The translations under genes were made by a program, and so were the position numbers. Under the pieces are notes generated by a model, which ran no database searches, was not told the origin of the DNA, and was given only the letters and a program-made list of their open reading frames with translations. From Vicinamibacteria bacterium (GTDB lineage: Bacteria; Acidobacteriota; Vicinamibacteria; Marinacidobacterales; Marinacidobacteraceae), in assembly GCA_963555995.3 (NCBI GenBank), contig OY821641.1, positions 311,399 through 375,398 of the forward strand: 64,000 nucleotides of DNA, in the 5' to 3' direction. Positions 8,899 through 63,293 of this stretch are shown here, in pieces (position 1 is the stretch's first letter; every line of letters begins with the position of its first letter).

Positions 8899-8950
8899 AG
8901 CTTGGAACGCCGGTCTCCAGACCGGCACGCGCGGCGCGCCGCGCACGGCG
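8899..8950 (-). repeat. REP-like two-hairpin module (reverse orientation)
   Basis: 'cttggaacgccggtctccagaccggcacgcgcggcgcgccgcgcacg'. H2 is ccggtct/agaccgg, with a shortened GC-rich H1. Confidence 0.85.
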
Positions 8951-9086
8951 CGACCTTGACCTGCGGGACCGTTCTTTGCCTCGGCGTTCACCTCCACGGC
9001 CGAGAGTTTGATCCATGCAAATCGAGATAGTGGAAGCGATCAGCCTTCAAGAGATGGCGGCATTGCTCCGGGACTGGTGATTCGTC

Positions 9087-9668
9087 ATGGCTTCAAGACT
9101 TGACCGGTATTTCCAGCGCACCAGAGAGTGGCCGGAGGAAAAGCGGAAGCTCCGGGCGATCCTGCTGGACTTCCCGCTCACCGAGGAGCTGAAGTGGCGC
9201 CAGCCCTGCTACACGTTTCAGGGAGCGAACGTGGTCATCCTGTCCGGGCTGAAACACACGGTGGACCTCGGTTTCTTCAAGGGCTCCCTGCTGGACAACC
9301 CGCACGGGCTGCTCATTCCGCCGGGGCCGCACTCGCAGGCGTCCCGTCAACTGCGGTTCACGAGCGTCGAGGAGATCGAGGAGAAGGAACCGATCATCCG
9401 GGCCACCATTCAAGACGCCATTGAGGTGGAACGGGCGGGCCTGCGGGTGGACTTCAGGCAGAAGCACGAACTGGAGCTGGTGGCGGAACTCCTCGCGAAG
9501 ATGGAGTCGGACGCCGAATTCAAGGTGGCCTTCGAGGCGCTGACGCCGGGGCGGCAGCGGGGATACAACCTCTTCTTCGGCGCGGCGAAACAGTCGAAGA
9601 CGCGTGCCGCGCGGATCGAGAAGCACGCGGCGCGGATTGTGGAGGGGAAGGGCATGCACGACCGGTAG
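9087..9668 (+). CDS. YdeI/OmpD-associated (DUF1801-type) family protein
   Basis: 'LTEELKWRQPCYTFQGANVVILSGLKHTVDLGFFKG' (DUF1801-like), plus C-terminal 'FEALTPGRQRGYNLFFGAAKQSKTRAARIEK' (YdeI-like). Confidence 0.75.
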   Translation: MASRLDRYFQRTREWPEEKRKLRAILLDFPLTEELKWRQPCYTFQGANVVILSGLKHTVDLGFFKGSLLDNPHGLLIPPGPHSQASRQLRFTSVEEIEEKEPIIRATIQDAIEVERAGLRVDFRQKHELELVAELLAKMESDAEFKVAFEALTPGRQRGYNLFFGAAKQSKTRAARIEKHAARIVEGKGMHDR

Positions 9669-9702
9669 TCCGTCGGGTCTGATGCGGCGGTCTCGCACTT
9701 TG

Positions 9703-9790
9703 CGCGCCGTGAGGCTGGGTGGGGTTACGACGTGCGCGGCGCGGAGCGCCGCGCGTGCCGGTCTGGAGACCGGCGTTCCAAACCGGCGGC
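9703..9790 (+). repeat. REP-like module, long form (forward orientation)
   Basis: 'gccgtgaggctgggtggggttacgacgtgcgcggcgcggagcgccgcgcgtgccggtctggagaccggcgttccaaacc'. H1 is gcgcggcgc-gga-gcgccgcgc. H2 is ccggtct-gg-agaccgg. Confidence 0.9.
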
Positions 9791-9872
9791 GCCATCCGGG
9801 CCTCAGCGGCTGAGCAGGATCCGCGGTATCGCGGAGGCTCGGAAATCAGGACGCGGCGGTAGGCTGCGGGGA

Positions 9873-10370
9873 ATGTCGTACGAAGCCCTGATCGCTCTCC
9901 TCGACTACCACTACTGGGCCCGGGACCGGTTGCTCGCCGCCGTGGCGCGGATCCCTCCCCTCGACTTCCACCGCGACCTGGGCAACAGCTTCGGTTCCAT
10001 CCGTGGCACCCTGGTCCATCTCGTCTCGGCGGAGTGGATCTGGTGCTCGCGCTGGGAGGGGCAGGGGCCGAGCGCGCACCTGGCTCCCGAGGACTTCGGG
10101 ACCGTCCGGGACATCCGGACGCGCTGGGAGGAGGAAGAGCGCCGGATACGAGACTTCGTCCATGGGCTCGGCCCGGACGGAGTCGGCCGCGACCTCGAAT
10201 ACACCCCGCTGGAGGGCGGCTCGACGCGCTCGGTGTTCTGGGCGATGGCGCAGCACGTCGTGAACCACGCCAGCTACCACCGGGGGCAGGTGACGACCAT
10301 GCTCCGCCAGCTCGGCGCGGAGCCGCCGCCGAGTCAGGACCTGATCACGTTCTATCGGGACCGGGGCTGA
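9873..10370 (+). CDS. DinB family protein
   Basis: 'LLDYHYWARDRLL', 'GTLVHLVSAEWIW', 'HVVNHASYHRGQV', a typical DinB/YfiT four-helix His triad pattern. Confidence 0.85.
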   Translation: MSYEALIALLDYHYWARDRLLAAVARIPPLDFHRDLGNSFGSIRGTLVHLVSAEWIWCSRWEGQGPSAHLAPEDFGTVRDIRTRWEEEERRIRDFVHGLGPDGVGRDLEYTPLEGGSTRSVFWAMAQHVVNHASYHRGQVTTMLRQLGAEPPPSQDLITFYRDRG

Positions 10371-10406
10371 AGGGCGTCCCCGCTATCGTTTCGCCGCTTC
10401 GGCACG

Positions 10407-15435: not shown

Positions 15436-16590
15436 ATGTCCATCCCCATTCTGCGCTCTTTCTGGGTCAACCGGATCGAGCGCGCGTGGGATTCCCGCAA
15501 TATCGTCTGGCTCTCGGGAGCGCGGCGCCTCGGGAAGACCGTACTCAGCCGGCAACTGCCGGGCGCCCGTTACTTCAACTGCGATCTGCCCTCGGTGCGG
15601 GATCGTCTCGCGGATCCCGAGTCCTTCTTCGTCCATCTTCCTTCCGGCTCCCGGATCGTGCTGGACGAAGTGCATCGCGCCAAGTACCCGGCTGGTCTCC
15701 TGAAGATCGCCGCGGACGCCTGGCCGGATATCCGCGTGCTGGCTACCGGCTCCTCCACGCTCTACGCAAGCCGGCGATTCAGTGACTCGTTGGTGGGGAG
15801 GAAATGGCCGGTTCGCTTTGCTCCGGTCCTGTGGCGCGAGTCCCCCGACTGGACCGGCGCGGCGAATCTGGAGCGGCGGCTCCTGAACGGAGGGTTTCCG
15901 GACCAGATGCTGCTCCCCGCACCCGATCCGCTCTGGTTCGAGGAGTGGATGGACAGCTTCTTCGCGCGGGACATCCTGCCGCTCTTCGACATCCGGAACC
16001 GGGGCGGCTTCCTCCGCGTCGTCGCCTCGGTCTTCGTCCGAAACGGCGAGTTGCTGGACATCTCTGCCGTGGCCCGCGACGCCGGTGTGAGCCGCCCGAC
16101 CGCCGTCCAGTACCTGAATATTCTGGACGACTGCCACCTCACGGTGCGGGTGCCGCCCTACCACGGCGGAGGTCGCCGGGAACTGGTGCGCCGCCCTCGG
16201 GCATATGCGCTGGACACCGGCCTCGTCTGTCATCTGCGGGGGTGGACGAACCTCCGGCCGGCGGACCGTGGTCCGCTCTGGGAGAACCTGGTACTGGACG
16301 AGCTGCTGACCGCCATTCCCCAGAGCCGCGTTCACTACTGGCGCGACGCGGCGGGGCACGAAGTGGATTTCGCCATCGTTGCCGGACGGGACCGGGTGGC
16401 TGCGGTGGAGGCGAAGATCTCGCCGGACGGCTTCAGCCCCAAGGCGCTGGCGAGATTCCGGAAGGCCTATCCCGACGGCCCGAACCTGCTCTGTTGTCCT
16501 CACGTGGACGCGCCGGTCCCGCGGCGGTTGGGAGGTTTCGAGGTCACGCTGTGCGCCCCGGCGCAGGTGGCGGAGCTGATCCGGGAGTAG
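15436..16590 (+). CDS. AAA_14/DUF4143 family ATPase
   Basis: Walker A 'GARRLGKT', Walker B 'IVLDEVH', and a DUF4143-type C-terminus 'YWRDAAGHEVDFAIV...VEAK'. Preceded by a short AT-rich stretch with the dyad 'caaaaaactcggttttttg'. Confidence 0.85.
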   Translation: MSIPILRSFWVNRIERAWDSRNIVWLSGARRLGKTVLSRQLPGARYFNCDLPSVRDRLADPESFFVHLPSGSRIVLDEVHRAKYPAGLLKIAADAWPDIRVLATGSSTLYASRRFSDSLVGRKWPVRFAPVLWRESPDWTGAANLERRLLNGGFPDQMLLPAPDPLWFEEWMDSFFARDILPLFDIRNRGGFLRVVASVFVRNGELLDISAVARDAGVSRPTAVQYLNILDDCHLTVRVPPYHGGGRRELVRRPRAYALDTGLVCHLRGWTNLRPADRGPLWENLVLDELLTAIPQSRVHYWRDAAGHEVDFAIVAGRDRVAAVEAKISPDGFSPKALARFRKAYPDGPNLLCCPHVDAPVPRRLGGFEVTLCAPAQVAELIRE

Positions 16591-19495: not shown

Positions 19496-19639
19496 CGGCC
19501 CCGCGGGTCAAACCCGCCAGGGAGGAGAAATCCGTGGCTGAAGCGCTCAGGGACGTTCAAAAGGCCAGCGGGATCAACTTTGGGGCCCAGCCCCTGAACA
19601 GTCTGGGCGAAGGGGCAACCAGCGTGGGCTACGCCGCCT

Positions 19640-19808
19640 GCTGGGAGCGCCGGTCTTCAGACCGGCACGCGCCGCGCGACAGCGCAGCGCACGGCACGAC
19701 ACGGGCCGGCGCAGTGGCGCTCTGCTCCCGGTTCATCACCGCAGACAGCGACACGACATCTGCGGGCCTCCGGCCCGCGGTGCTGCTCTGAAGAGCGGCG
19801 CTCTCAGC
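19640..19808. repeat. REPIN-like inverted pair of REP modules (169 bp)
   Basis: Left end 'gctgggagcgccggtcttcagaccggcac', right end 'gtgctgctctgaagagcggcgctctcagc'. The right hairpin keeps its pairing through compensatory changes. Homologous to 35797..35965. Confidence 0.85.
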
Positions 19809-20003
19809 CGTCTTCGCTGTTTCATGCCCGGCGGGGTGGGCAGGAGGACCGATCATGAGGGTATCGCGCGGACTGGAAGCGCAATGTGACTGCCCTCCTT
19901 CCCCGGGTGCGGAGCAACCGTTCGACGAAGTATGGGACGAGGTCGTGTCCTACATGGGCCGGATCGCCAGCGCCGTGCGCGGCACGCCAGCCCCGGAGTT
20001 CCT

Positions 20004-21745: not shown

Positions 21746-22863
21746 TCGTTGCGCCGTCCCCGGTTGGGTGGGCGCGAAGCGGGTGTTTGCGTCTGCGAGT
21801 CTCGCGTCGCTTCGCTCCGCGATGCCGGTCTGAAGACCGGCGCTCCCGTGTGTTCCGCCTCCGCCACCAGCCGGGTGATCAACGCCTCGCCGTCCGGCAG
21901 GCGGGCGGCCAACTCATCCCGGATGCGCGGCTTGACGGCCGGGGCGAACGGCGCCAGGTCCGGGCGCGAGATCTCCACGTCGTTCGCACGCATTTCGGAG
22001 ATCGCCTCCGCCTCCATCCGGCGGGCGACCTCGCTCTGATAGGCGAGCGCGTCCGCCGCCGAGCGGTCCACGGTCTCCCGGACGTCCGGCGGCAGCGAGC
22101 GGTAGAACGGCTCGTGCACCAGCAGCGTGATCGGGTTGTAGGTGATGGAGGTGAAGCTGTAGAACTTCGCCACCTCGTAGAGCCGGCTGCTCACGAACCC
22201 GACGGCGTTCGCCTCCCCGCCGTCAATCACGCCCTGCTGGAGCGCCGAATAGACCTCGCCGTAGTTCATCGGCGTCGCCTGGACCCCCAGCGCCGAATAG
22301 GCCGCGAGATACGTCGCGTTCTGGAGGACTCGCAGCTTGAGGCCGGCCAGGTCCCCGGGCGCCTCGACCGATCTCCGCCGGTTGTACACGTGGCGGAACC
22401 CGTAGTCGAGGAACCCGAGCGAGCGGACGCCGGTGCGCTCGAGGAGGAGATCCCGCCACCAGTCCCCGACGGAGCCCTGCATCACCCGGAGCCCGTGGTC
22501 CCGCGTCTCGAAGAGGAACGGGAGGTCGAACACCTGGGTCTCCGGCACCCAGCCGGAGAGCACCGGGGTACCCGTGATCGCCACCTGCACCGCGCCGGCC
22601 TGGATCTGCTCGAAGGCGACCCGCTCGCCGCCGAGCTGTCCCGACGGATAGATGACGACCCGGAAGCGCCCGCCGGTCCGCTCGTCCATGAGGTCCCGGA
22701 AGCGCTCCGCCATGAGGTGGAACTCCGAGCTGGTCGAGAGCACGTGGGAGAAGCGGACGGTCCAGGTGGGCGGATCGGGTCCGGGCCCGCCGCACGACAG
22801 CGCGAGGAGCGCGGATAGCGCCGGACCAGAACCGACACGAGCGAGCGCACCTCGCGCGATCAC
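21742..22863 (-). CDS. dctP: TRAP transporter solute-binding protein (with REP-encoded C-terminal extension)
   Basis: 'IYPSGQLGGERVAFEQIQAGAVQVAITG', 'VFDLPFLF'. The last 40 or so codons run through a REP module at 21823..21847. Confidence 0.85.
   Translation of the reverse strand: MIARGALARVGSGPALSALLALSCGGPGPDPPTWTVRFSHVLSTSSEFHLMAERFRDLMDERTGGRFRVVIYPSGQLGGERVAFEQIQAGAVQVAITGTPVLSGWVPETQVFDLPFLFETRDHGLRVMQGSVGDWWRDLLLERTGVRSLGFLDYGFRHVYNRRRSVEAPGDLAGLKLRVLQNATYLAAYSALGVQATPMNYGEVYSALQQGVIDGGEANAVGFVSSRLYEVAKFYSFTSITYNPITLLVHEPFYRSLPPDVRETVDRSAADALAYQSEVARRMEAEAISEMRANDVEISRPDLAPFAPAVKPRIRDELAARLPDGEALITRLVAEAEHTGAPVFRPASRSEATRDSQTQTPASRPPNRGRRNE
21823..21847 (+). repeat. REP-like H2 module inside the dctP 3' end
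   Basis: 'tgccggtctgaagaccggcgctccc'. Confidence 0.8.
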
Positions 22864-42101: not shown

Positions 42102-42114
42102 CGGGGCCGCGACC

Positions 42115-42784: not shown

Positions 42785-42804
42785 GCCCGCCGAGTCACAG
42801 AACG

Positions 42805-43737: not shown

Positions 43738-43908
43738 TCGACTGGACCACAGAGTTCGGCATCGCGGGCGGCCTGCCGGGACTCGTGCCGATTCCGTGTT
43801 CCAGTGCGATTTGCGTGTCCGGACAAGATGGTGGACACTCCACCGGACAATCTGCGGGACAATACTCAGGACAAACTACGGCCCAACGTTGGCCCGGAGG
43901 GCAGCGCC

Positions 43909-45123: not shown

Positions 45124-45185
45124 CCGGCATTCCCCGGGACCTTCTTCCACCAGCCCGCTACCGGACCAGGAACGCCCCGCGCTCT

Positions 45186-45395: not shown

Positions 45396-45537
45396 CTCGA
45401 TCCGCGGGAAGTCGCCGGGCAGCACGTCCTCGAGCCGGTTGGTCCGCTGCCAGACCGGGAACGCCCCGTGCGCCCTCAGGTCCCGCCGCCGCGACCGCGA
45501 TCGCGCATGGGTGACAATTGCCCGCGGAACCGAGGCA

Positions 45538-47169: not shown

Positions 47170-47430
47170 GATCACAATCCGTGATGTCAAGTCGGGACGG
47201 GCGCCCGTCTCTCCCGCTCCCATTGCTGAACCGGGTGTCTTGATGTTCTCCGGAGTGCTGCGCAGTCCGCGCGCTGTTACGGTTCAGAAGATGCGGAAGG
47301 CGACCCGATTCCACCTCGACAGCTCTGCGGGATTCGGGGAGCTGGTTTCGGGAACGGTCGTCCAGTGTGGGGCTGGTGGTGGCCGCCCCGGCATACAGAC
47401 GCGCCCGATCCCACCGGGGAGTCGCCCGCG

Positions 47431-48729
47431 ATGACGTTCGACGCGGCAGACGTTCGGGAACGAATCCGCCTCGGCGAGGACGCGCGCTGGGAGCTCAAGG
47501 AGGTGGTGTTTCGAGGGAACCGCCTCGTCGGTCCCCGGCCTGACGCGCTTGCGGATGAGTTGGCCGCCTTCGCCAACGGTCGTGGCGGCATTTTGCTCCT
47601 CGGCGTGACCGAGGGTGGCGAGGTCCAGGGAGTCACCCGTACCCAACTCGATGAGCTTGACCGTAACGTCGTGGACCTCTGCCACAACCGGATCACGCCC
47701 CCTATCGAGGTCGATATCCGCCGTTTCCTCATCGAACCCGGGAAACCGGTCCTCTCCGTCGAGGTCGAACCGGGCTACGCCCAGCACGACAGCCCCGGCG
47801 GCGCGTACCAGCGCTTCGGCGGCAGCAAACGGCGGATGTCGCCGGATGAACGGCGTCGGCTCGCCGAGATCCGAAATCAGGCCCCCTTTCGGTGGTTCGA
47901 CAAGCAACCGGTGCCAGGCACCGGACTCGGCAGTCTCGACGACGCGCTTTGGGAACCGATGCTGGACGCTCAGGGACGGCTCGATCCCAGAAGAGGCCTT
48001 GCGAGACTGGCTCTCCTGGCGTCCGAAGCCGAGGCGGCGGCTGAAGCGACCGTCGCCGGCGTTTTGCTGTGCAGCCGCGCGCCGGAGCGATGGCTGCCAA
48101 ACGCCTGCATCACGGCGACTCACTATCGGGGCAAGGACCGCAGTTCCCCGCAGTTGGACGCGCGGGTCATCACGGGGCCGCTCCACCGGCAGGTCGCCGA
48201 CGCCATGACCTTCGTCGAGCGGAACATGCAGGTCGATGCCCACAAGACGTCAGCCCGGATGGATCAGCCCGAATACAGCCTCGAAGCGGTGTTCGAGGCG
48301 CTGGTGAACGCCGTGGCGCACCGCGACTACACGATCCGGGAAAGCCCAATCCGGCTTTCGATGTTCTCGGATCGGTTGGAGATTGCTACTCCGGGTCGGC
48401 TGCCGGGCAGTCTGACCGCCGATACGATGGGCAGCCGTCAGGCAACACGGAATGAAGCCATCGTTTCCATATTGACCGACATCGCGCTGGATGGAGTTTC
48501 CCGCTCGGGCAGCCCAGGTTTCTTGATGACGCGGCGCGGCGTCGGTATTGCCACTATCGCCCATAGAACCCGACGGCTCACGGGCCGGTCGCCCGTATAT
48601 GACGTGTCGGACGATGCCGTTACCCTCACGATTCCGGCGTCTCACCGCACAATGCCGAAGCTCTTCGCGAGAGCTTCCCGGCAAGGACGGGCCGCCGGCG
48701 GAACCGCCGATGCGAGGTTGGCAGGATGA
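47431..48729 (+). CDS. AlbA_2 (Schlafen-like) plus HATPase_c_4 domain protein ('RecG-like' putative DNA-binding/ATPase regulator)
   Basis: N-terminus 'GEDARWELKEVVF...ELAAFANGRGGILLLGV' (AlbA_2). C-terminus 'EALVNAVAHRDY...IRLSMFSDRLEIATPGRLPG' (HATPase_c_4). Its stop overlaps the next start (ATGA). Confidence 0.8.
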   Translation: MTFDAADVRERIRLGEDARWELKEVVFRGNRLVGPRPDALADELAAFANGRGGILLLGVTEGGEVQGVTRTQLDELDRNVVDLCHNRITPPIEVDIRRFLIEPGKPVLSVEVEPGYAQHDSPGGAYQRFGGSKRRMSPDERRRLAEIRNQAPFRWFDKQPVPGTGLGSLDDALWEPMLDAQGRLDPRRGLARLALLASEAEAAAEATVAGVLLCSRAPERWLPNACITATHYRGKDRSSPQLDARVITGPLHRQVADAMTFVERNMQVDAHKTSARMDQPEYSLEAVFEALVNAVAHRDYTIRESPIRLSMFSDRLEIATPGRLPGSLTADTMGSRQATRNEAIVSILTDIALDGVSRSGSPGFLMTRRGVGIATIAHRTRRLTGRSPVYDVSDDAVTLTIPASHRTMPKLFARASRQGRAAGGTADARLAG

Positions 48730-49211
48730 TCGCCGAAAAGGAACCGAGAATTGACTACTCCAGGTTCCAACTCTCCCTCAGACGGCTGGTGGAACAACAT
48801 GACAACCTCTTGGCCGCCGACGATGCGCTTTCGCGGCTGGACCGCGAGGCGCGTACCGAATCGGTGATTCGGCGTTTCAAGATGTGCTACGACTGCCTGT
48901 GGAAGGTCTTGAAGCGCTACCTCATCCAGAATCTCGGACTGGCTGATCCGCCAAATAGTCCTGTCCCGCTCTTCCGTCTGGCCGCGGAGAACGGTGTGTT
49001 CGATTCACCCGTTGAGCAGTGGATGCGGTACGTGGCCGCGCGAGTTGACACTGCCCACCACCACGACGGGGAGAAGGCGAAGCGCTGCCTCGATACCGTG
49101 CCCGAGTTTCTGGACGACGCCATCCATCTCTATGGGACGATAACGGGTGAACCATGGGGCAGCAATCCTGCCGCGCCGTTTGCCGCCGGTAGTGCACCAT
49201 GCTGGACCTGA
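48726..49211 (+). CDS. HEPN domain protein, HI0074 (nucleotidyltransferase substrate-binding) family, paralogue 1
   Basis: 'VIRRFKMCYDCLWKVLKRYL' and an R-x4-H motif 'RVDTAHHHD'. No Tyr two residues after the His. Confidence 0.8.
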   Translation: MIAEKEPRIDYSRFQLSLRRLVEQHDNLLAADDALSRLDREARTESVIRRFKMCYDCLWKVLKRYLIQNLGLADPPNSPVPLFRLAAENGVFDSPVEQWMRYVAARVDTAHHHDGEKAKRCLDTVPEFLDDAIHLYGTITGEPWGSNPAAPFAAGSAPCWT

Positions 49212-49621
49212 CTCCGCTCGACAACGCCATAGCCCAACTCGAAGAGGCGCTCGATTTCCACGGGTCTGACCTTGCTGCCGAGCAGCCGCGACTCCGGCTC
49301 CAGTTGCGCGCGGCCGCGATTCAGGCGTTCGAATTCACGTACGAGCTCTCCTTCAAGATGCTTGGCCGGTATCTGGAGCAAGTTATGCCGAATCCAGCGG
49401 CAGTGGACAAGATGCCGTTCAAGGACCTGATCCGGGAAGCGCTGGGTCGCGGGCTGCTCGCCGCGGACGTAGATGCGTGGGAGCGGTTCCGGAAGTTTCG
49501 GGGAACGACCAGCCACACCTACGACGCCGGAAAGGCACAGGCCATCTTCGAAGGCATTCCGGAGTTTCTGGACGAAGTCCGGTATCTCCGGAAGCGGCTC
49601 CGCACCAACGTGGAAGGGTGA
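49199..49621 (+). CDS. HEPN domain protein, HI0074 family, paralogue 2
   Basis: 'AIQAFEFTYELSFKMLGRYL' and the canonical 'RGTTSHTYD' (R-x4-H-x-Y). It overlaps paralogue 1 by 13 nt. Confidence 0.85.
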   Translation: MLDLTPLDNAIAQLEEALDFHGSDLAAEQPRLRLQLRAAAIQAFEFTYELSFKMLGRYLEQVMPNPAAVDKMPFKDLIREALGRGLLAADVDAWERFRKFRGTTSHTYDAGKAQAIFEGIPEFLDEVRYLRKRLRTNVEG

Positions 49622-51255
49622 TGGCGCCCGCGATTGATCTTCGTCCGGATCACCGGAAGATCGTCGAGGACATCCTGCGCGACCACCTCCCGGATGGCGC
49701 CAAGGTCTGGGTCTTCGGAAGTCGCGCCGAGTGGACCACCAAGGATTCTTCCGACCTGGACCTCGCGCTCGAAGGTGACGGGCCGCTCGATCGCCGGATC
49801 GTGATGGCGCTCGAACTGGCTTTCGAGGAGTCGTTCCTCCCGTTCCGGGTGGACGTGGTGGATCTGGAGCGGGTGCAGGAGCGGTTTAGAGAGATCGTGC
49901 TCCGAAGCCGCGTTGGCCTGTCTTTGCCGAGGGATGGTGAGGCAACGTATACGAATCGAGGCGAGATGGGGTTCTCAGATGCCTTCCTAGTGAATCCAAG
50001 AGTCAAGCTGGAACGAGATGTGGAGTATCCGTTCGTCGAAATGAGTGATCTGATGCCGGGTCTGCGTGCGGCTGTGTCAACGCGGCGTCGTCGGTTTCGC
50101 GGTGGCGGTTCTCGCTTCAGAGCCGGTGACACTTTGATGGCGCGAATAACGCCATGTCTCGAAAACGGCAAGATTGCCCGTTACGTGGCAACACGGAAAG
50201 ACGACGTAGGACATGGTTCGACCGAATTCATTGTCATTCGAGGCCGCCCCGATGTAACGGATACCGAGTTTGCCTTCTATGTGACGCGTTCAGATTCAGT
50301 CCGGGAATACGCGATCTCTCAGATGAGTGGCACATCGGGCCGGCAGCGCGTCCCAGTGGACGCGTTGAACACTCTGATGGTTTCTGTACCAAGCCTTCCT
50401 GAGCAGCGCGCAATCGCGAGCGTTCTCGGGACGCTCGATGACCGCATCGAGCTGAACCGGCGGATGAACGAGATATTGGACGCGATGGCGCGGGCGCTCT
50501 TCAAGTCCTGGTTCGTGGACTTCGATCCTGTACGGTCAAAAATGGAAGGCCGCGACGCGGGTCTGCCGTCCGAGATCGCCGACTTGTTCCCGGACCGGCT
50601 GGTGGAGTCGGAGTTGGGCGAGATTCCCGAGGGATGGGCCGTCATGCCGCTTGCAGAGGTCATGGAAATCAACCCCGTCCGCACACTCAGTAGGGGTCAC
50701 ATCGCGCCCTACCTCGATATGGCAAACATGCCGAGAACGGGTCATGTTCCTCTCAGTATCCGAATGCGGAACTTCGGCTCGGGGACCCGATTTGTGAACG
50801 GCGACACGCTCATGGCGCGGATTACGCCATGCCTTGAGCATGGGAAGACAGCCTATGTGGATTTCCTCCAACACGGTGAAGTCGGATGGGGTTCGACTGA
50901 GTTCATTGTGCTGCGACCGAGGCTGCCAATCCCCGGCGAATATGCCTACTGTCTTGCGAGAAGTTCTCGTCTTCGCGAACACGCGATCGCGAGCATGACG
51001 GGGAGCAGTGGGCGACAGCGAGTTCCGCCGGCCGCGCTTTCCCAGTTCCTGGTGTGTGTGGCAACTCCGGGGATCTATCGCGCGTTTGGCGATTCGGTGA
51101 GCGCGTTGTTCGCCCGTGTGCGAGAAGGGCAGCGTCGTTCGCGTGCCGCGACTTCCCTCCGCGACATGCTCCTGCCCAAGCTCGTGTCCGGCGAAGTCCG
51201 CGTGCCCTCTACTCTGGTCGGGCGCTACAACGACCCCGCAGCGCCTGCGACCTGA
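49621..51255 (+). CDS. hsdS: fusion protein: minimal nucleotidyltransferase (MNT) domain plus Type I specificity subunit HsdS
   Basis: Residues 1-100 carry pol-beta NTase motifs 'VFGSRAEWTTKDSSDLDLAL' and 'FRVDVVDL'. The rest is a two-TRD HsdS ('GDTLMARITPCLENGK', central 'LPEQRAIASVLGTLDDRIELNRRMNEILDAMARALFKSWFVDF', 'GDTLMARITPCLEHGK', 'LRDMLLPKLVSGEV'). There is no stop between the domains. The ATG overlaps the HEPN2 stop (TGATG). Confidence 0.8.
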   Translation: MAPAIDLRPDHRKIVEDILRDHLPDGAKVWVFGSRAEWTTKDSSDLDLALEGDGPLDRRIVMALELAFEESFLPFRVDVVDLERVQERFREIVLRSRVGLSLPRDGEATYTNRGEMGFSDAFLVNPRVKLERDVEYPFVEMSDLMPGLRAAVSTRRRRFRGGGSRFRAGDTLMARITPCLENGKIARYVATRKDDVGHGSTEFIVIRGRPDVTDTEFAFYVTRSDSVREYAISQMSGTSGRQRVPVDALNTLMVSVPSLPEQRAIASVLGTLDDRIELNRRMNEILDAMARALFKSWFVDFDPVRSKMEGRDAGLPSEIADLFPDRLVESELGEIPEGWAVMPLAEVMEINPVRTLSRGHIAPYLDMANMPRTGHVPLSIRMRNFGSGTRFVNGDTLMARITPCLEHGKTAYVDFLQHGEVGWGSTEFIVLRPRLPIPGEYAYCLARSSRLREHAIASMTGSSGRQRVPPAALSQFLVCVATPGIYRAFGDSVSALFARVREGQRRSRAATSLRDMLLPKLVSGEVRVPSTLVGRYNDPAAPAT

Positions 51256-51455
51256 TGTTCGTCGGGCGTGATCCAGGGCGGGAAGCAACACGTGCAGAAT
51301 TTGCACAAGTTCGATTTCGGCACGGGAGGCCCGGATCTCTCCGGGTGCATCCTGGGGGCTGGTTGTCCGACGGGACCTCCGAAGACGGATTGAGACATCT
51401 GTGCGGCTTGTCCCAGAGCACGGCCCAAAAGGTGGGGGCAACTAGTAAGGATTCC

Positions 51456-52978
51456 TTAACAGCCTGTGGTGAAACTCCGCTGGGCGGGATTGAGTGCGCT
51501 GGCGGGGCTTCGTAGAATTTTCGCATGGCTATGGGACGTCGCGGGACGCGGCGGCAAGGGTTGTGGATTGCGACCGGGGCGCTGCCTCGGAGCAAGGGGG
51601 ATCCGTTTTACGAGCGTCTGAATAAGGTTCTCGGGGGGGATCGCTTTGACGAGTATGTGGAGGAGCGGTGTGAGCGTCACTACGCGCCGGACGGTCGTCC
51701 TGGGCTTGCGCCTGGGCGGTATTTCCGCTGCCTTCTGATCGGGTATTTCGAGGGTCTGGACTCGGAGCGATTGATCGCGTGGCGGGTGAACGACTCCCGC
51801 AGCCTGTTGCGGTTCCTGGGTTACGGGCCGGCGGACAGCGGGCCGGATCATTCGACGATTTCGCGGACGCGCCGTCGGGTGAGTGAGGAGACGCACGCGG
51901 AGGTGTTCGGCTGGGTTGTGGAGCGGGTGAAGCGAGCGGGGCTTCTGCGGGGGGATGCGCTGGGGGTGGATACGACGACGCTGATGGCGAACGCCTCGAT
52001 GCGGAAGATCGTGCGACGGGACAGCGGGGAGGGCTACCGGGAGTATGTGAGGAGGTTGATGGAGGAGTCGGGGATCGAGGCTCCGACGTTGGAGGAGTTG
52101 GCGCGCTACGACCGGACGCGGAAGAAGCGGTTGTCGAACGGCGACTGGGCGCATCCGGTGGACCCCGAGGCCCGCATCAGTCGGCTGAAGGATGGCCGGA
52201 CGCGGATGGGGTACAAGGCGGAGCACGCCGTGGACCTGGCGAGTGGCGCGATCGCGGCGGTGACGGTCCAACCCGGGGACCGCGGGGACACCAAGACCCT
52301 GCCGCAGACCCTGGACGAAGCGGAGAAGCATGTGGGGGCCGGGGCGGCGGAGGCTGAAACGCCGGGGAAGCCAACGGCTTGCCGGAAGGAGGGGAAGCCC
52401 CGGTCCTTGGTGTGTGACAAGGGGTATCACAGCGATGCGGTGATCGAGCAGACGCGGGAGCGTGGTTACCGTTCGTACATCGCGGAGCCGAAGCGCGGGC
52501 GTCGTCGCTGGCGGGGTCGAGAGTCCCTGCGTCGCGCGACATACGGCAACCGTCGGCGGGTTCGTGGAAATCGCGGCACCCGGCTGCGAAGACGGCGCCA
52601 CGAACTGACGGAGCGTTCCTTCGCGCACTGCTACGAGACCGGCGGGATGCGCCGGGTGTGGTTGCGGGGCAGTGGGAACATTCGAAAACGTCTGCTGATC
52701 CACACCGCTGGCTTCAATCTGTCGCTGCTCATGCGGCGCCTGACCGGGATCGGGAAACCAAAGGGCCTCCAGAACCGGAACATGGAGGCCATGCAGCGCC
52801 ACTTGTCGCCCGGACGGGCCTCCCTGTGGCGCATCGTGCACCTCTGGCGCCGTTGTCCGACCGCGATCCTCGTTCTCTTGACCGAACCCCCGTCCTGGCC
52901 GTGTCTCCACGAGCAGAAGCTCGACGCTCATTCCCGACGGAATCCGCCGTGAACGCCACTTTCACCACAGGCTGTTAA
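51456..52978 (+). mobile_element. IS5-superfamily (IS1182-like) insertion sequence, 1,523 bp
   Basis: Perfect 19-bp terminal inverted repeats: 'ttaacagcctgtggtgaaa' (51456..51474) and 'tttcaccacaggctgttaa' (52960..52978). The outermost TTAA could instead be a target duplication. One transposase ORF. Confidence 0.85.
51525..52952 (+). CDS. IS5/IS1182-family DDE transposase
   Basis: InsH-type N-terminal domain ('FRCLLIGYFEGLDSERLIAWRVNDSRSLLRFLGY..HSTISRTRRR'). DDE region ('LGVDTTTLMANAS', 'CDKGYHS', 'ERSFAH...RGSGNIRKRLLIHTAGFNL'). Confidence 0.85.
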   Translation: MAMGRRGTRRQGLWIATGALPRSKGDPFYERLNKVLGGDRFDEYVEERCERHYAPDGRPGLAPGRYFRCLLIGYFEGLDSERLIAWRVNDSRSLLRFLGYGPADSGPDHSTISRTRRRVSEETHAEVFGWVVERVKRAGLLRGDALGVDTTTLMANASMRKIVRRDSGEGYREYVRRLMEESGIEAPTLEELARYDRTRKKRLSNGDWAHPVDPEARISRLKDGRTRMGYKAEHAVDLASGAIAAVTVQPGDRGDTKTLPQTLDEAEKHVGAGAAEAETPGKPTACRKEGKPRSLVCDKGYHSDAVIEQTRERGYRSYIAEPKRGRRRWRGRESLRRATYGNRRRVRGNRGTRLRRRRHELTERSFAHCYETGGMRRVWLRGSGNIRKRLLIHTAGFNLSLLMRRLTGIGKPKGLQNRNMEAMQRHLSPGRASLWRIVHLWRRCPTAILVLLTEPPSWPCLHEQKLDAHSRRNPP

Positions 52979-53012
52979 TGGTTCGATCCGAAGGGCGCCG
53001 GACGGTTCGCCC

Positions 53013-56141
<3,129 letters not shown>

Positions 56142-56194
56142 GCGGTTACCAGGCGCAGCTCCCGGGTTCCCCGGTTGCTCTGTAGGAGGTCTTC

Positions 56195-56527
56195 ATGACT
56201 CATAAACCCGATGCCCTTGAACGAGATTTCGACGCCGCGATGATGCAGATCTACTACCGTGCGAAGGACGAGGTGGGATACAACGCGAACCGGTTTCTGC
56301 AAATGCTGCACGACTACGGCGGCGTTGAAACCGCCAGGCGCCTGCTACCGGCCATGTCCGACGGATTCACTGCACTCTACGAACACTGTCGTCTCGACCT
56401 GACCGTCGAGTACCTCGTGCTGCAACCCCGATGGCATCAACTCTTCACGGATGAAGAGCGAGACACGGCGCGTCGCCGTCTCAAGTGCTGCGGGATGGAG
56501 GTTCCGGCCGTATCTCGTTCGGACTAA
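56195..56527 (+). CDS. hypothetical protein (110 aa) downstream of hsdR
   Basis: Protein-like composition ('RFLQMLHDYGGVETARRLL', 'LTVEYLVLQPRWHQLFTDEE'), 53 nt after hsdR. No family recognised. Confidence 0.6.
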   Translation: MTHKPDALERDFDAAMMQIYYRAKDEVGYNANRFLQMLHDYGGVETARRLLPAMSDGFTALYEHCRLDLTVEYLVLQPRWHQLFTDEERDTARRRLKCCGMEVPAVSRSD

Positions 56528-57690
56528 GACCTCCGGAGGTAGGACGCCATCACCGGATCAACCAGCGTCCAGCGGCCGTCGTCATTCCGGTGGATCAGGT
56601 CGTCCTGTTCGAGTACCGCACGGGCGTGATTCCCGGTGGATGCGGGCAGCCTGAGAGTGGACAGGAACCGGTGGGAGCCCGGGTGTTCCACTCCGTCCTC
56701 GGACTGGGCGATGGCCTTGAGCATGGCGCGTTGGCTGGCCGGACGACGGAGCAGGCGGCCGGCGGCGACGCGTCCATCTTCGTCCACGATTCGGGACCAA
56801 TGCGCTTCCACGGATTCGATGCCGGGCGAGCGCTGACCGCCCCAGAGCCGGGCGCAGAGCGCATTCACATAGTAGGGATGCCGTGCCGTGAGCCTGAGGA
56901 CTCGAGCGATCACGTCGTCGGCCACCGGCTGGCCCCAGCGTGTCCGGCTCGCTTCCTGGATGAAGGCCCGGTAGTCAGCCTCCCCGATGCGGTCGAGGGT
57001 GATCTTGCGGCACAGGCGGTACAACGGCCGCTCCTCATCCTCGAACATCCCGGCCAGCAGGCGCCGCTGGCTCCCGGAGAAGAGATAGGTGACATTCCCT
57101 GACCGTTCGACCGCGTGCCGGATGGCGCCTTCGAGGCTGCGCTGCGCGGTCTTGGGGGAAAGCTGCGACAACTGCTGAAACTCGTCGAGCACCAGGACCA
57201 CCCGGCGCCCGACCATCCCGGCGGCCCGGTCGAGGCCGAGCAGCATTTCGGTGATTCCCCGTGTCGGAGGACCCGGCGGCGTGAGGCGGATCTTCAGACC
57301 CATCGCACCGACGGAGAATTCCGGAGAGAGCGCGCGGAACGCGTCGGTGAGCGTTTGACTCGCTTTTCTGCCCTTTGGTGCGATCCGGGCGCTCACGCCT
57401 TCAACTGCCGTTCGCAACCGTCCTTCGAGGTCTTGGCCGTCGTGGGCGACCAGCAGGTCAACGGCGGTGGCGGCGATCTCCGTTCCAGCGAGGTCCTGCA
57501 GCACCTGTTCGATGAGGCTGGTCTTGCCCGTCCGGCGGTGGCCCCAGAGCCAGGTGTGCGTCCCGGAAGCGATGTTGTGGCTGAGTTCGGCGCGCTCCTC
57601 CGTGCGGTTGCAGTGGGCGGCTCCCGTCGCGATTCCGAGCGGGAAGAGGTCCGTTCCGGCTGCCATGTGAGGGATTTTATTCCAATACAT
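56524..57690 (-). CDS. ATPase_2 (archaeal-ATPase/ORC-like) family P-loop NTPase with C-terminal wHTH-like region
   Basis: Walker A 'GHRRTGKTSL', Walker B 'VVLVLDEFQ', C-terminus '[24 protein letters not shown]'. The start may instead be the Met at 57666. Confidence 0.8.
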   Translation of the reverse strand: MYWNKIPHMAAGTDLFPLGIATGAAHCNRTEERAELSHNIASGTHTWLWGHRRTGKTSLIEQVLQDLAGTEIAATAVDLLVAHDGQDLEGRLRTAVEGVSARIAPKGRKASQTLTDAFRALSPEFSVGAMGLKIRLTPPGPPTRGITEMLLGLDRAAGMVGRRVVLVLDEFQQLSQLSPKTAQRSLEGAIRHAVERSGNVTYLFSGSQRRLLAGMFEDEERPLYRLCRKITLDRIGEADYRAFIQEASRTRWGQPVADDVIARVLRLTARHPYYVNALCARLWGGQRSPGIESVEAHWSRIVDEDGRVAAGRLLRRPASQRAMLKAIAQSEDGVEHPGSHRFLSTLRLPASTGNHARAVLEQDDLIHRNDDGRWTLVDPVMASYLRRS

Positions 57691-57807
57691 ATTGGAACAA
57701 GGATCATTGGTTCAACGGATATGGAAGCCGTCCTTCTCGCGACGGTGCGTTGCAGGGCACGGGTTCGCCATCCGTGCCGGTTTGGTGGGGCGCCTCGCGC
57801 CTTCGGC

Positions 57808-57835
57808 GGTGCCGGTCTGGAGACCGGCGGTCCCT
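57808..57835 (+). repeat. REP-like H2 module (forward)
   Basis: 'ggtgccggtctggagaccggcggtccc'. Confidence 0.8.
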
Positions 57836-57855
57836 TCCGATCCGGAACGTCATGC

Positions 57856-59025
57856 TCAGATGACGTTCCGCTCCGGAGCGCCCTTCCCGCCGGTGAACCG
57901 CGCCACGGAGAACGCCTCGATCTCCACCGTCCTGGACTCCCCGTCGGCGATCACCTCGGAGATCGCCCGGCCGACCGCCGGGGCGTGCTGCATTCCGTGG
58001 CCCGAGAACCCGTTCGCCAGCACGAATCGGGGCAGTTCCGGGACCGGACCCAGGATCGCGTTGTGATCCGGGGAAACCTCGTAGAGGCCCGCGTTCAGCG
58101 TCTTCATCACCGTGTCCTCAACTCGCGGTAGCCGTCGGGTCGCGTCCTCCCACACCCCGGCCAGATAGTCGAGATCCGCGGTCTGCGAGAACCCCGGCGG
58201 CTCGTCGGGGTCCGAGTTCCCGATCAGCATCCCGCCGCTGTGGAGGTGCATGTATACCCCCGTACCCCAATCAATGGTCAGCGGCATCCGCTTCGGCCCC
58301 CACGCCAGCGGCTCCGTCGTGAAGAACTGCCTCCGCACGGGCGAGACCGGCACGTCCACCCCGAGCAGCGCGCCCACCTGAGCGGCCCACGGCCCCGCCG
58401 CGTTCACGAGCCACGCGCACTCCCACCGCTCGCCGCCCGCCACGAACGAGAACCCGCCCCCGTCCGCTACCGCCGCCTCCGTCACCTCGCACCCGCGCCG
58501 CAACTCCACACCCCCCCGCCGCGCGAGCGCCGCGTACCCCGCCACCAGCGCCGCCGGGGTCGCCACCCCGTCCTCCGCGCAGAACGTCGCCCCCACCAGG
58601 TCCCGGATCTCGATCCCCGGCAGGATGCGCCGCGCCTCCTCCGGCGTGATGACCTCCACCGGCGCGCCCAGCGCCCGCTGCACCTTCGCCGTCTCGGTGA
58701 ACCGCGCCAGGTCCGCTTCGGAGTCCAGCAGGAACAGGTACCCGTCCTGGGTGAAGTCGGCGTCCACCCCGGTCCGCTCCTTGAAGTTCCGGATCTCCTC
58801 GATGGAATACCGCGAGAGCGCCACGTTCGCAGCGGTCGTGAACTGCAACCGCACCCCGCCGGCGGCCTTGGCGGTCGAACCCGTCCCCAGGGCGTCCTCG
58901 CGCTCGAAGACCACCACCCGGCCTACCTTCCGCTCCGCGAGATGGGCGGCGATGGAGGCGCCGATCACCCCGCCGCCGACGATGGCGACCTCGGCGAAGC
59001 GTTCCCCCGGCATCACGCCCCGCAC
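57856..59025 (-). CDS. FAD-dependent oxidoreductase (DAO family; sarcosine oxidase beta/glycine oxidase-like)
   Basis: Dinucleotide fold 'VAIVGGGVIGASIAAHLA', 'GTGSTAKAAGGVR', C-terminal 'GFSGHGMQHAPAVG'. Confidence 0.85.
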   Translation of the reverse strand: MRGVMPGERFAEVAIVGGGVIGASIAAHLAERKVGRVVVFEREDALGTGSTAKAAGGVRLQFTTAANVALSRYSIEEIRNFKERTGVDADFTQDGYLFLLDSEADLARFTETAKVQRALGAPVEVITPEEARRILPGIEIRDLVGATFCAEDGVATPAALVAGYAALARRGGVELRRGCEVTEAAVADGGGFSFVAGGERWECAWLVNAAGPWAAQVGALLGVDVPVSPVRRQFFTTEPLAWGPKRMPLTIDWGTGVYMHLHSGGMLIGNSDPDEPPGFSQTADLDYLAGVWEDATRRLPRVEDTVMKTLNAGLYEVSPDHNAILGPVPELPRFVLANGFSGHGMQHAPAVGRAISEVIADGESRTVEIEAFSVARFTGGKGAPERNVI

Positions 59026-60633: not shown

Positions 60634-60744
60634 GCCACCGAACCCGACCACAGCCGATACGGAGAGCGGCCGGTGCCGGCGGGCGGAAGGCCGGCGGTGG
60701 AGCCACACGGGCGAGCAGCGTTGCGCCCTCCGCTCGCCTCCGGC

Positions 60745-60786
60745 GCGCTGTGCCGACCGGAGGTCGGCGCTCCAAGCCGGCGCGCC
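60745..60786 (+). repeat. REP-like module (forward), H2 variant gccgacc-gga-ggtcggc
   Basis: 'gcgcgctgtgccgaccggaggtcggcgctccaagccggcgcg'. Confidence 0.8.
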
Positions 60787-61773: not shown

Positions 61774-61792
61774 TCCTCTGAGGAGAGCGCTT

Positions 61793-61840
61793 CGCGGCCC
61801 TGCGGGCCGCGTGCCGGTCTGAAGACCGGCGCTCCCAGCC
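61793..61840 (+). repeat. REP-like module (forward), H1' variant gcggccc-tgc-gggccgc
   Basis: 'cgcggccctgcgggccgcgtgccggtctgaagaccggcgctcccagcc'. Confidence 0.85.
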
Positions 61841-61973
61841 TACGTGCTACCGGTCGGGGCCGGCGTCCCTTCGGCCTTCACGAATCTCCCGAGCCCGGCA
61901 GCACCCCGCGGTGGAAGTCCTGGCACTCCCAGACCGCTACGACGGTCGCTCCAACTCGCGAACGCGCGCCGCC

Positions 61974-62750
61974 TTAGGTGGTCACGCCGTCCAGATCCAC
62001 GATGACGGGTGCGGCTTCGGTTCGGTGGTCTGTGTCCACCCACGCGTCGCGCAAGCAGTCCGCCAGAATCTGGCTGCCGAGAACCAGGTGAAGCCTCGAA
62101 GTGCCTTCCTCGGAGAACTGGAACCCGAAGTTGAAGCCGGCTTTGCCGTCGGGATGGGCTTGGCGGTAGAGGTCCACGAATCCGAGTTCGCAGAGCCGGG
62201 CCAATTCCTGCTGTTCCCGTTGGCTGTACGCGCTTCCCGGCTTGGGACGACGACCGTCCGGCAACACGTTGAAATCTCCACACAACAGGCTCGGCCGCTG
62301 GGCGTAGCCTTCCTTGCGAACGTGGGTCCGCAGGCACTCCAGCCAAGCCACCCGGGTGTTGATGGCCTTCTCGTTGGCGTCCTTGCGGGGGTTTCCGTAC
62401 TTGGCCGGGTTTCCGTACGGGGCGTAGATGGACGAGAACCGTATCTGCCCGATGTCCACCGTGAGCAAGCGGGCCCCGTTTGCTTCCGGACAGGGCAGGC
62501 CGCGGAAGCGGACCACGGGCTTGGGTAACTCCCGCCGGCTTAGCACGGCAACGCCGTAGTCCGTCGGACAGGTCCGACCGAATGCAGCGCTGTGGTAGCC
62601 GGCTTCCTCCAGTGCCTTGGTCGGGAACGCGGTTTCGGGCACGGAGATCTTCTGGAGGGCCACGATGTCGGGCTTCCTGGCCGCGAGCCAGTCCAGGATC
62701 CTGGGAAGGCGCTTTCGGATGCTTCGGACGGATGACGTTGCGATTCGCAT
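61974..62750 (-). CDS. xth: exodeoxyribonuclease III-like (EEP family) nuclease
   Basis: 'KPDIVALQK', 'YGVAVLSR', 'LLCGDFNV', 'SRLHLVL...DHRTEAAPVIVDL', typical EEP catalytic blocks. Confidence 0.8.
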   Translation of the reverse strand: MRIATSSVRSIRKRLPRILDWLAARKPDIVALQKISVPETAFPTKALEEAGYHSAAFGRTCPTDYGVAVLSRRELPKPVVRFRGLPCPEANGARLLTVDIGQIRFSSIYAPYGNPAKYGNPRKDANEKAINTRVAWLECLRTHVRKEGYAQRPSLLCGDFNVLPDGRRPKPGSAYSQREQQELARLCELGFVDLYRQAHPDGKAGFNFGFQFSEEGTSRLHLVLGSQILADCLRDAWVDTDHRTEAAPVIVDLDGVTT

Positions 62751-62830
62751 GGTTTCTTTTCGTCGGGACGCGAACCGTACTTGTGCAGGACGCCAAATGC
62801 TGTCAGGGTTTCAGCCGGACCCTGTCGGAG

Positions 62831-63215
62831 GTTGGCGTTCCAAGCCGTACCTCCCACCTGCGCTCTTGAACTCCACGTTGAGGTGGGAGCCGCCTTGTTC
62901 TGGTGGAGTTGCGACGTGCGCGGCGCGGAGCGCCGCGCGTGCCGGTCTGGAGACCGGCGTTCCAAGCCGTATGTGTCACCTGCGCTCTTGAGCTCCACGT
63001 TGAGGTAGGAGCTGGCTTGTTCGGGTGGGGTTGTGACGTGCGCGGTGCGGAGCGCCGCGCGTGCCGGTCTGGAGACCGGCGTTCCAAGCCGTACGGGCCA
63101 CCGGCGCTCTTGGGTTCCGCGTCGGGGTGGGAGCTGGCTTGTTCGGGTGGGGTTGTGCCGTGCGCGGCGCGGAGCGCCGCGCGTGCCGGTCGGAGACCGG
63201 CGGTCCAAGCCGTTT
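62831..63215 (+). repeat. tandem array, three copies of a 121-122-bp three-hairpin REP unit (BIME-like)
   Basis: The 'cgttccaagccgt' phase marker recurs at 62836, 62958 and 63080 (and as 'cggtccaagccgt' at 63201). Each unit is H0 (e.g. ctcccacct-N21-aggtgggag, 62851..62889), then 'ggtggagttgcgacgt', then H1, then H2. Confidence 0.9.
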
Positions 63216-63246
63216 CCGTGGTCTGGCTGGGTGGAGCGGGCGTCGC

Positions 63247-63293
63247 TGCGGGCCTGCGGCCCGCGTGCCGGTCTGAAGACCGGCGCTCCCGGC
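63247..63293 (+). repeat. REP-like module (forward), H1' gcgggcc-tgc-ggcccgc
   Basis: 'tgcgggcctgcggcccgcgtgccggtctgaagaccggcgctcccggc'. Confidence 0.85.

Follow-up and report, generated by a model that had tools for sequence, protein, structure and literature searches.

What are the short, GC-rich repeats that crowd a 64-kb stretch of chromosomal DNA from a marine or sponge-associated Vicinamibacteria bacterium (the window, ~70% G+C), and what keeps them folded? The genes among which they lie are ordinary (beta-lactamase-family proteins, CcmF, citrate synthase, aminotransferases, a type I restriction system and one insertion sequence, IS). Each repeat, which we call a module, joins a variable hairpin (H1) through the linker GTG to a near-invariant hairpin (H2) and a short tail. 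We conclude, with a probability of about 0.78, that the modules are non-autonomous repeats of the repetitive extragenic palindrome (REP) class, of the REP, bacterial interspersed mosaic element (BIME) or REP doublet forming hairpins (REPIN) type. Sequence comparison further shows that GTG-H2-tail is the same REP that flanks genes for REP-associated tyrosine transposases (RAYTs; HUH/Y1, IS200-like) in other bacteria.

Reading the modules together with their flanks gave the oriented unit [GGTGGRGTTGCGACGT]-H1-GTG-CCGGTCTG(G/A)AGACCGG-CG(T/C/G)TCC(A/C)AGCC, in which H1 contains only G and C (7–9 bp, 3-nt loop) and the tail begins CG(C/T/G)TCC. H2, CCGGTC-TG[G/A]A-GACCGG, is a 16-bp perfect palindrome whose central dinucleotide is strand-specific, being GG or GA relative to H1 and the tail. 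In type-A modules the tetramer GACG (CGTC on the opposite strand) stands one base from H1; type B lacks it. The H2 core CCGGTCT-NN-AGACCGG occurs exactly 18 times in the window, against 0.8 expected and a maximum of 4 in 100 shuffles. A covariance model trained on eight type-A copies recovered 25 full-length modules (E ≤ 3.8 × 10−5) and one truncated module between positions 8893 and 63300, close to the 27 or so counted in an initial annotation of this DNA; together they sum to 1,671 nt, or 2.6% of the window. That annotation also held nearly all copies to be intergenic, and on a codon-usage gene map 22 of the 26 are entirely so, the remaining four overlapping only uncertain ends of predicted open reading frames (ORFs). 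The modules are therefore, as REPs are, short palindromic units that are over-represented and mostly extragenic.

Across the 136 copies that we parsed, the arms of H2 read CCGGTC/GACCGG in 124 and the linker reads GTG in 93. Rarer forms of H2 alter both arms together (CCGGCC/GGCCGG, CCGACC/GGTCGG, CCGATC/GATCGG), and the loop of H2 is linked to the tail, TGGA going with CGTTCC and TGAA with CGCTCC or CGGTCC, which defines subfamilies. H1 behaves differently, with at least 60 distinct stems and loops that are most often GGA; pairing is perfect in 111 of the 136 copies and broken by one mismatch in the other 25. In a further 150 copies, 98.1% of stem cells were paired, compared with 86.1% after shuffling and 30–45% with slid partners, and both-sided changes occurred at 12 of 15 stem pairs, including all nine of H1, although these figures are inflated because the alignment was fitted to the model and the copies are related. 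Pair counts were not taken from a MAFFT alignment, which put 7-bp and 9-bp H1 stems out of register. The initial annotation had read such covariation as a sign that the structure is under selection, and this claim stands in part. So many different perfect H1 stems call for some constraint or mechanism by which H1 is held as a hairpin. Many of the double changes, however, are inherited rather than independent, since the copies belong to amplifying subfamilies, and the copy at 42.1 kb is decaying without compensation, its central H1 mismatch being A.C in the window and C.C in two syntenic relatives (loci L007 and L023). On either strand the predicted minimum-energy fold comprises both hairpins, at −35 to −41 kcal/mol; read in the transcript sense, its z-scores are close to −3.5. 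Single folds also suggested a third, closing helix between the 5′ flank GGAGCG and the tail CGCTCC, which we rejected, as 6/6 matches occurred in 1.6% of copies compared with 1.1% with shuffled tails.

The family extends well beyond the window. Scanning one genome per species for GTGCCGGTCTGRAGACCGGCG yielded at least 96 stretches totalling 717 kb, and among the matches listed nearly all came from Acidobacteriota (Vicinamibacteria, 'Ca. Marinacidobacterium', SB0661_bin_8, RHO1_bin_67, jk18x, p16x), of which we take at least the SB0661 and RHO1 metagenome-assembled genomes (MAGs) to be sponge-derived. The covariance model found 182 more modules in these 717 kb of related DNA, distributed over at least 12 MAGs, which excludes the possibility that the copies are an assembly artefact restricted to one contig. 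Full modules were also present in a Bryobacterales-labelled MAG (64% GC) and a lone H2 in an Anaerolineaceae contig; viral contigs and plasmids searched for modules contained none. Long homopolymer runs of G or C adjoin modules in two loci (L068, ~60–80; L080, ~6440–6480) and may be assembly errors at strong hairpins.

Comparison of orthologous sites reveals how the modules come and go. The window is syntenic with L007, L023, L078 and L044 at 91–95% identity. The module at 37.4 kb (37374–37440, + strand), whose H1 is gccccgc/gcggggc, is a clean insertion of ~50 nt, comprising H1, H2 and tail, that is missing from L007. Likewise, a module with a degenerate H1 at 21.8 kb (21791–21857, +) is missing at the orthologous site of L078, a type-A module with a shortened H1 at 8.9 kb (8893–8955, −) is missing from that of L044, and an entire 600-nt cluster of five modules (35.6–36.2 kb) is missing in L007, where the flanking genes lie ~10 nt apart. 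Conversely, L007 and L023 share the type-A module at 42105–42172 (−) with the window and carry near 42.2 kb an extra tandem copy that the window lacks, with a paired H2 change between the two relatives (CCGGTA/TACCGG vs CCGGTC/GACCGG). In the divergent spacer at 40.8 kb (40766–40831, −; type B in the window), the window on the one hand and L007 and L023 on the other hold modules with wholly different yet paired stems. As to evolution in place, shared copies point both ways, one decaying at 42.1 kb and others keeping their pairing. Module turnover was similar in comparisons among other loci, and no target-site duplications were seen at clean insertions, which is what one would expect of Y1 transposases. 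Gain and loss of units is rapid among genomes of 91–95% identity, and this presence or absence at orthologous sites is the mobility within a lineage that characterizes REPs. We considered whether H1 was a pre-existing target hairpin or terminator and rejected this, because no H1 stands at empty orthologous sites and H1 arrives together with H2 in clean insertions. H1 is a companion of H2, specific to the lineage and moving along with it, and the moving unit is the ~50–70 nt made up of H1, GTG, H2 and tail. At 37.4 kb the inserted module removed a stop codon that the L007 orthologue keeps, and the window ORF (37330–37695, −) consequently reads through the repeat for ~30 extra codons.

The connection to transposases was found in other genomes. 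One of the loci recovered in the motif scan belongs to an AT-rich Victivallaceae genome (L051), in which a 227-aa ORF at the motif (1689–2372) matches Pfam Y1_Tnp and scores 73.9 bits against NCBIfam REP_Tyr_transpos, just below the cut-off of 80. Here GTG-H2-CG(Y)TCC occupies the opposite strand upstream of the RAYT gene and the gene strand inside or downstream of it, that is, head-to-head with tails outward, and inverted copies of H2 plus tail flank RAYT genes in nine loci in all (L051, L098, L099, L102, L103, L104, L106, L107, L108) from Lentisphaerota, a 51%-GC Acidobacteriota MAG and unassigned bacteria. One of these, L098, is syntenic with L051; L099 has seven tandem H2 copies on its 5′ side; and in L102 two copies lie upstream, one lies inside the gene and two lie downstream, one of these having a CGTTCCA tail. 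L102 was the one REPtron found with the metagenome pattern 'MPNH.H then H2', and the pattern 'H2 then R-G-Y-L-P-H' gave zero matches. The RAYTs belong to a clade ('RGYLPH' type) far removed from E. coli RayT, with 29% identity across 95 residues. The initial annotation had connected the repeats to REPs or REPINs mobilized by a RAYT-type Y1 transposase, and the nine flanked RAYT genes, the presence and absence at orthologous sites and the occurrence in many MAGs all speak for that connection. Within the ~20 kb retrieved from RAYT-bearing genomes of other lineages, H2 was confined to the RAYT gene; it is in the acidobacterial lineage that the repeat has multiplied massively and acquired H1.

H2 also lies within RAYT coding sequence. 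It is in frame in the RAYT genes of L051 (1689–2372), L098 (10001–10639) and L102 (~980–1650), where it reads 'DAGLKTGAPG' or 'NAGLETGDP', and H2-encoded peptides (GSAGLQTG, DAGLKTSAPG, ERRSPDRH, RSGDRRS) are present in at least 20 RAYT proteins in databases. Two RAYTs that are 37% identical carry the internal H2 at the same alignment position with identical codons, synonymous sites being conserved as well, so that the DNA hairpin is more conserved than the surrounding protein; the in-gene H2 could be a regulatory or end-defining site. Other subclades of the large RAYT family carry different repeat-derived N-termini, which makes H2 specific to particular subclades, and each RAYT subclade appears to have its own REP. 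In many annotated RAYTs, among them P0014, P0128, P0126, P0047 and P0263, the N-termini are runs of repeat peptides (AGSAGHQSGE ×7, NAEPQLGPPG, GAELALGDPG, ANQEIGAPG), RAYT ORFs having been extended by gene callers through 5′ REP arrays. Some RAYTs are associated with type I restriction-modification: in L108 (7300–13389) the gene lies inside such an operon, in the order hsdM-hsdS-RAYT-hsdR, P0062 joins an HsdR C-terminal domain with Y1_Tnp, and P0139 is likewise listed as embedded in or fused to such a system. A weak RAYT match in L070 is, judging by its sequence motif, a radical-SAM-type ORF and was discarded; this 920-aa ORF (28–2790) ends at a TGA inside an H2 loop (CCGGTCTGAAGACCGG), so the GA-loop variant can supply a stop codon in the sense orientation.

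Modules also occur in arrays and doublets. Tandem units of 85–87 nt were found in L056, L080 and L073, and a 122-nt unit in the window (62834–63213, +; 3.1 copies, 89% matches) holds three type-A modules (62907–62974, 63029–63096, 63151–63217, all +). We rejected a CRISPR array because the 87- and 122-nt arrays repeat the whole unit, 'spacer' included. Head-to-head, tail-outward doublets lie at 19.63/19.75, 35.79/35.91 and 36.07/36.18 kb. The first pairs 19633–19701 (−; H1 gcgctgcgc/gcgcggcgc, one T.G) with 19749–19815 (+; type B), and its composite (19.63–19.9 kb) is repeated at 35.79–36.06 kb, where 35790–35858 (−; H1 gcgcTgcgc/gcgcAgcgc) faces 35906–35972 (+; type B). The third, formed by 36067–36128 (−) and 36176–36236 (+), the latter with its tail 11 nt from the stop of the gene at 36248–37333 (−), spans ~190 nt (36.05–36.24 kb) with terminal inverted repeats of ~45 nt, is conserved in L062, L077 and L047, and is predicted to fold as one long hairpin (−152 kcal/mol). 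The cluster missing from L007 begins with a further module (35672–35733, −) that has a second, inverted H2 beyond H1 and is thus REPIN-like. Inverted doublets able to form a long hairpin, as REPINs do, are therefore present, although they are a minority compared with singletons and tandem units; REP families are known as singletons, clusters and head-to-head dimers (PMC3733652), the same mix as seen here.

The initial annotation had raised the question of whether copy orientation correlates with the direction of transcription, and it does. A gene 3′ end lies within 15 nt of a module on the tail side in 49 cases and on the head side in 4 (P = 7 × 10−11), while gene 5′ ends near modules show no such bias (4 vs 3). 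Modules are thus found almost exclusively just past stop codons, their tails towards the gene. Between genes that run in the same direction (co-directional spacers), 47 tails point to the upstream stop and 19 away from it (P = 8 × 10−4). Within the window, 14 copies are on the + and 12 on the − strand, each following the local gene, so the bias tracks transcription rather than the replichore. H2 lies a median of 21 nt from the stop and never closer than 6 nt; in 23 of 57 cases it lies ≤15 nt away. TAG is the module-adjacent stop in 34 of 59 cases (58%) in the window and loci (for example 8883–8885 and 42099–42101), as opposed to 31% elsewhere (P = 1 × 10−4), and is preceded by G (GTAG) in 22 of the 57 listed cases. 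Possible sources of this excess are an insertion target containing TAG or modules that supply or replace stops, as with the stop replaced at 37.4 kb and the one in the H2 loop of L070.

Such placement raises the possibility that the modules are mainly host RNA elements of the 3′ untranslated region (UTR), which would end or stabilize transcripts or tune termination, their transposase link being only historical. Besides the one-sided position after stops, the short distance to H2 and the TAG enrichment, this account draws on the very stable folds in transcript sense and on published REPs lying mostly downstream of ORFs, where they are plausibly RNA elements (PMC3733652). We nevertheless consider it unlikely. 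A terminator role, which the initial annotation had offered as an alternative, lacks its defining U-tract: a run of at least four T follows the hairpins in 0 of 160 copies in the transcript sense and in 2 of 160 in the module sense, so these are not canonical intrinsic terminators. The modules resemble Rho-independent terminators as stable GC-rich hairpins just downstream of ORFs and differ from them in having two hairpins, in being repeated, mobile and arrayed, and in lacking a U-tract in either orientation. Mismatched stem positions on the module-sense strand are G.T rather than A.C by 21 to 6 (7 to 0 in window copies; 14 to 3 in a parse treating all mismatches alike), so wobble is tolerated on the strand opposite the upstream mRNA. 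As Y1 transposases act on one strand, which is established for the IS200/IS605 family and E. coli TnpA_REP, this is modest evidence that the hairpins are constrained as single-stranded-DNA substrates. Close relatives, moreover, do without modules at the same genes, the five-module cluster sits inside what is in L007 an operon-like junction of ~10 nt, ~30% of the copies in co-directional spacers have the other orientation, and the same H2 flanks RAYT genes. Two further explanations invoke other DNA-level roles. That H2 is a nearly invariant perfect palindrome while the neighbouring H1 varies freely would suit a duplex site for a dimeric regulator or nucleoid protein, comparable to gyrase or IHF on E. 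coli BIMEs, with hairpin potential incidental. This seems to us very improbable, as the central dinucleotide of H2 is strand-specific, H2 variants change both arms together, modules lie at gene 3′ ends and not at promoters, and H1 keeps its pairing rather than its sequence, which a duplex reader would not require. Miniature inverted-repeat transposable elements (MITEs) of a DDE transposase would be suggested by the ~190-nt inverted doublet with its ~45-nt terminal repeats and by the DDE-type IS of the window (51456–52978). That IS, though, ends in perfect 19-nt terminal repeats of its own (TTAACAGCCTGTGGTGAAA), which bear no relation to the module, the clean insertions lack target-site duplications, and no transposase family recurs near modules in the 96 loci; clustering the 603 proteins predicted from these loci revealed no gene family recurring beside modules other than housekeeping ones. 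We therefore rejected a MITE of the local IS and regard a DDE origin in general as scarcely credible.

Several observations weigh against a REP identity for the modules, or at least complicate it. The H2 copies of the REPtrons lack H1, and the only Acidobacteriota-labelled RAYTs (two) come from the 51%-GC MAG and not from the 70%-GC lineage. The REPtron layout, seen for GTG-H2-tail in the nine loci of other lineages, was found nowhere among the 70%-GC acidobacterial sequences scanned, and tblastn with E. coli RayT, the Victivallaceae RAYT and 282 RAYT probes detected no RAYT in the 717 kb of relatives or in the window, the latter in agreement with the initial annotation; for the 70%-GC lineage we infer a cognate RAYT. 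The canonical GTAG tag beside the hairpin is missing, GTAG appearing only as stop-codon context 6–45 nt away in the 22 cases above. Transposition alone would not predict the strong stop-codon and single-orientation bias, which hints at selection at the level of the host, and the pairing figures carry the inflation described above.

If the modules are REP-class repeats, their GTG-H2-tail part would be bound and cut by a RAYT-type enzyme on single-stranded DNA, and mobilization in trans would fall to a sense-strand-acting RAYT from the L102/P0004 clade. The hairpins would then be constrained primarily by their use as transposase DNA substrate rather than as mRNA structure. Modules would survive mainly in 3′ UTRs, either because they are harmful elsewhere or because antisense hairpins are useful there; transcribed as antisense copies, the two stable hairpins could protect or pause the transcript, and an H2 within ~15 nt of the stop, inside the ribosome footprint, could interfere with translation termination. 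In E. coli, ribosome stalling lowers expression when a REP lies within ~15 nt of the stop codon. A more far-reaching version, which we hold to be rather doubtful, combines an unusually old, cross-phylum recognition pair of H2 and RAYT with an H1-joined REP possibly adopted by the host at gene 3′ ends. The pair may have kept its hairpin nucleotides, even in frame, through genomes of 43% to 70% GC, and the modules, spread in a fixed orientation over a large share of the gene 3′ ends of marine Vicinamibacteria, may have been recruited by the host as a stop-proximal element that controls the 3′ ends of mRNA or the termination of translation, perhaps without a RAYT still resident.

Among known systems, the modules resemble the REPs, BIMEs and REPINs of Proteobacteria (E. 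coli REP, Pseudomonas REPINs) in being short GC-rich palindromes of very high copy number in spacers, mostly downstream of ORFs, in occurring as singletons, clusters and head-to-head doublets, in insertion polymorphism, in pairing kept among variants, and, in other lineages, in the same sequence flanking, inverted, a single-copy Y1 transposase gene. They differ in the linker GTG, the tail CG(Y)TCC and the lack of GTAG at the stem; in an amplified unit that is a double hairpin with a hypervariable first stem, mostly in singletons and tandem units with few REPIN doublets; in a strong single orientation relative to the upstream stop; and in their Acidobacteriota host. CGTC-tagged REPs (dRS3, RPE) have a terminal CGTC, stems starting with A:T and a CCA tail (PMC3733652). 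The modules share with them 8–9-bp stems, short loops, the lack of a dedicated transposase nearby and, in type A, GACG near H1. Their stems, however, are pure G/C and so do not start with A:T, their tail is CG(Y)TCC instead of CCA, type B is untagged, and H2 is linked to RAYT genes. Further parallels exist in TIRtrons (TIRYT), Y1 genes flanked by inverted non-GTAG repeats, some of them double palindromes and some amplified, with Acidobacteria among the hosts (PMC3733652), and in Pseudomonas units of a REP joined to an unrelated stem-loop, present in hundreds of copies (Di Nocera et al. 2013, PMC3733652). The TIRtron sequences (e.g. GGGGWSAS) are unrelated to ours and their copy numbers 'moderate' (PMC3733652), compared with a module density that reaches ~0.4 per kb, and the orientation bias, stop-codon bias and cross-phylum repeat conservation of the modules are not described for TIRtron or composite repeats. 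The modules lack the GTAG and CGTC tags of the two catalogued REP superfamilies and are closest to REPs and to 'TIR'/composite Y1-linked repeats (PMC3733652).

The initial annotation did not recognize the consensus as a described family, and neither did our searches: Rfam gave 0 matches at the gathering score, with two chance-level matches at E ≤ 5 and Acido-Lenti-1 unmatched; the exact H2 string occurs in no searchable paper; and in the literature on RAYTs and REPINs, Acidobacteria and sponge symbionts we found no description of the module repeat. The modules extend the known REP phenomenon to a new lineage and are not a new kind of system; what is unusual is the bipartite unit, the very high density, the strict stop-adjacent orientation and a core shared across phyla. 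Where REP and REPIN populations are highly abundant, the link has been mainly to two proteobacterial RAYT groups (PMC5581495); the modules display the same abundance, very densely packed, in Acidobacteriota that are uncultured and largely sponge-associated or marine. Repeats of this class are usually held to be lineage-specific and vertically inherited, so that sharing a core with the RAYT genes of distant phyla was not to be expected, and with their strict orientation next to stops the modules lend themselves well to asking whether REPs are parasites that the host tolerates or functional 3′-end elements. In practical terms, the repeats can be expected to break MAG assemblies, mislead gene callers (ORFs through modules, repeat-peptide N-termini of RAYTs) and can serve as strain markers.

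We located each stem variant named in the initial annotation. The H2 form ccggct/agccgg occurs at 35.7 and 36.1–36.2 kb, and the variant at 19.78 kb, in the right half of the first doublet, reads ctgctct/agagcgg; the double change in H1 at 35.83 kb (gcgcTgcgc/gcgcAgcgc), the stem gccccgc/gcggggc in the H1 position at 37.39 kb and the H1 G.T wobbles at 42.14 and 63.04 kb are likewise in place. Along the window, the copy at 8893–8955 has its tail 7 nt past the TAG stop of the gene ending at 8885, and a type-A copy follows at 9723–9790 (+), which L044 shares at the orthologous site with identical stems. A group on the − strand comprises a truncated module consisting of H2 and tail with only a remnant of H1 (28596–28625), its H2 beginning 12 nt past the TGA stop at 28589; a type-A module with H1 gcgcAgcgc/gcgcTgcgc (28622–28689; 28.65 kb); a module combining H1 gcggAcc/ggTccgc (28.78 kb) with H2 ccggcc/ggccgg (28744–28807; 28.77 kb); and a type-B module with one G.T in H1 (28825–28889). 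Between convergent gene ends lies a type-A module with H1 gcgcggTgc/gcAccgcgc (30378–30445, +; 30.39 kb). Further along, the copy at 42105–42172 lies 3 nt past the TAG stop at 42101, and a type-A module at 42798–42864 (−) has a degenerate H2. The remaining copies are all on the + strand: one with a degenerate H1 (57793–57844), its tail 11 nt from the stop of the gene at 57856–59025 (−); one with H2 ccgacc/ggtcgg (60719–60784; 60.75 kb); a type-B module with H1 gcggCcc/ggGccgc (61781–61846; 61.80 kb); and, beyond the 122-nt array, a type-B module (63241–63300) whose tail overlaps the gene at 63296–64000 (−) by 5 nt at its TAA stop.

The longest stretch free of modules, ~15 kb at 42865–57792, coincides with a lower G+C content (0.62–0.68), the type I restriction-modification locus and the IS, and may be recently acquired DNA that the repeats have yet to colonize. 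The IS itself is complete, encodes a DDE transposase (DUF772 / DDE_Tnp_1; ORF 51525–52952) and is inserted ~35 nt upstream of hsdR (53013–56141) of that locus. An unrelated 21-nt tandem repeat (42626–42690; 3.1 copies) lies inside a weakly predicted ORF. Finally, the window contains two paralogous AAA_14 / DUF4143 ATPase genes (15436–16590 and 30880–32106), which have relatives in L011, L019, L030 and L053.

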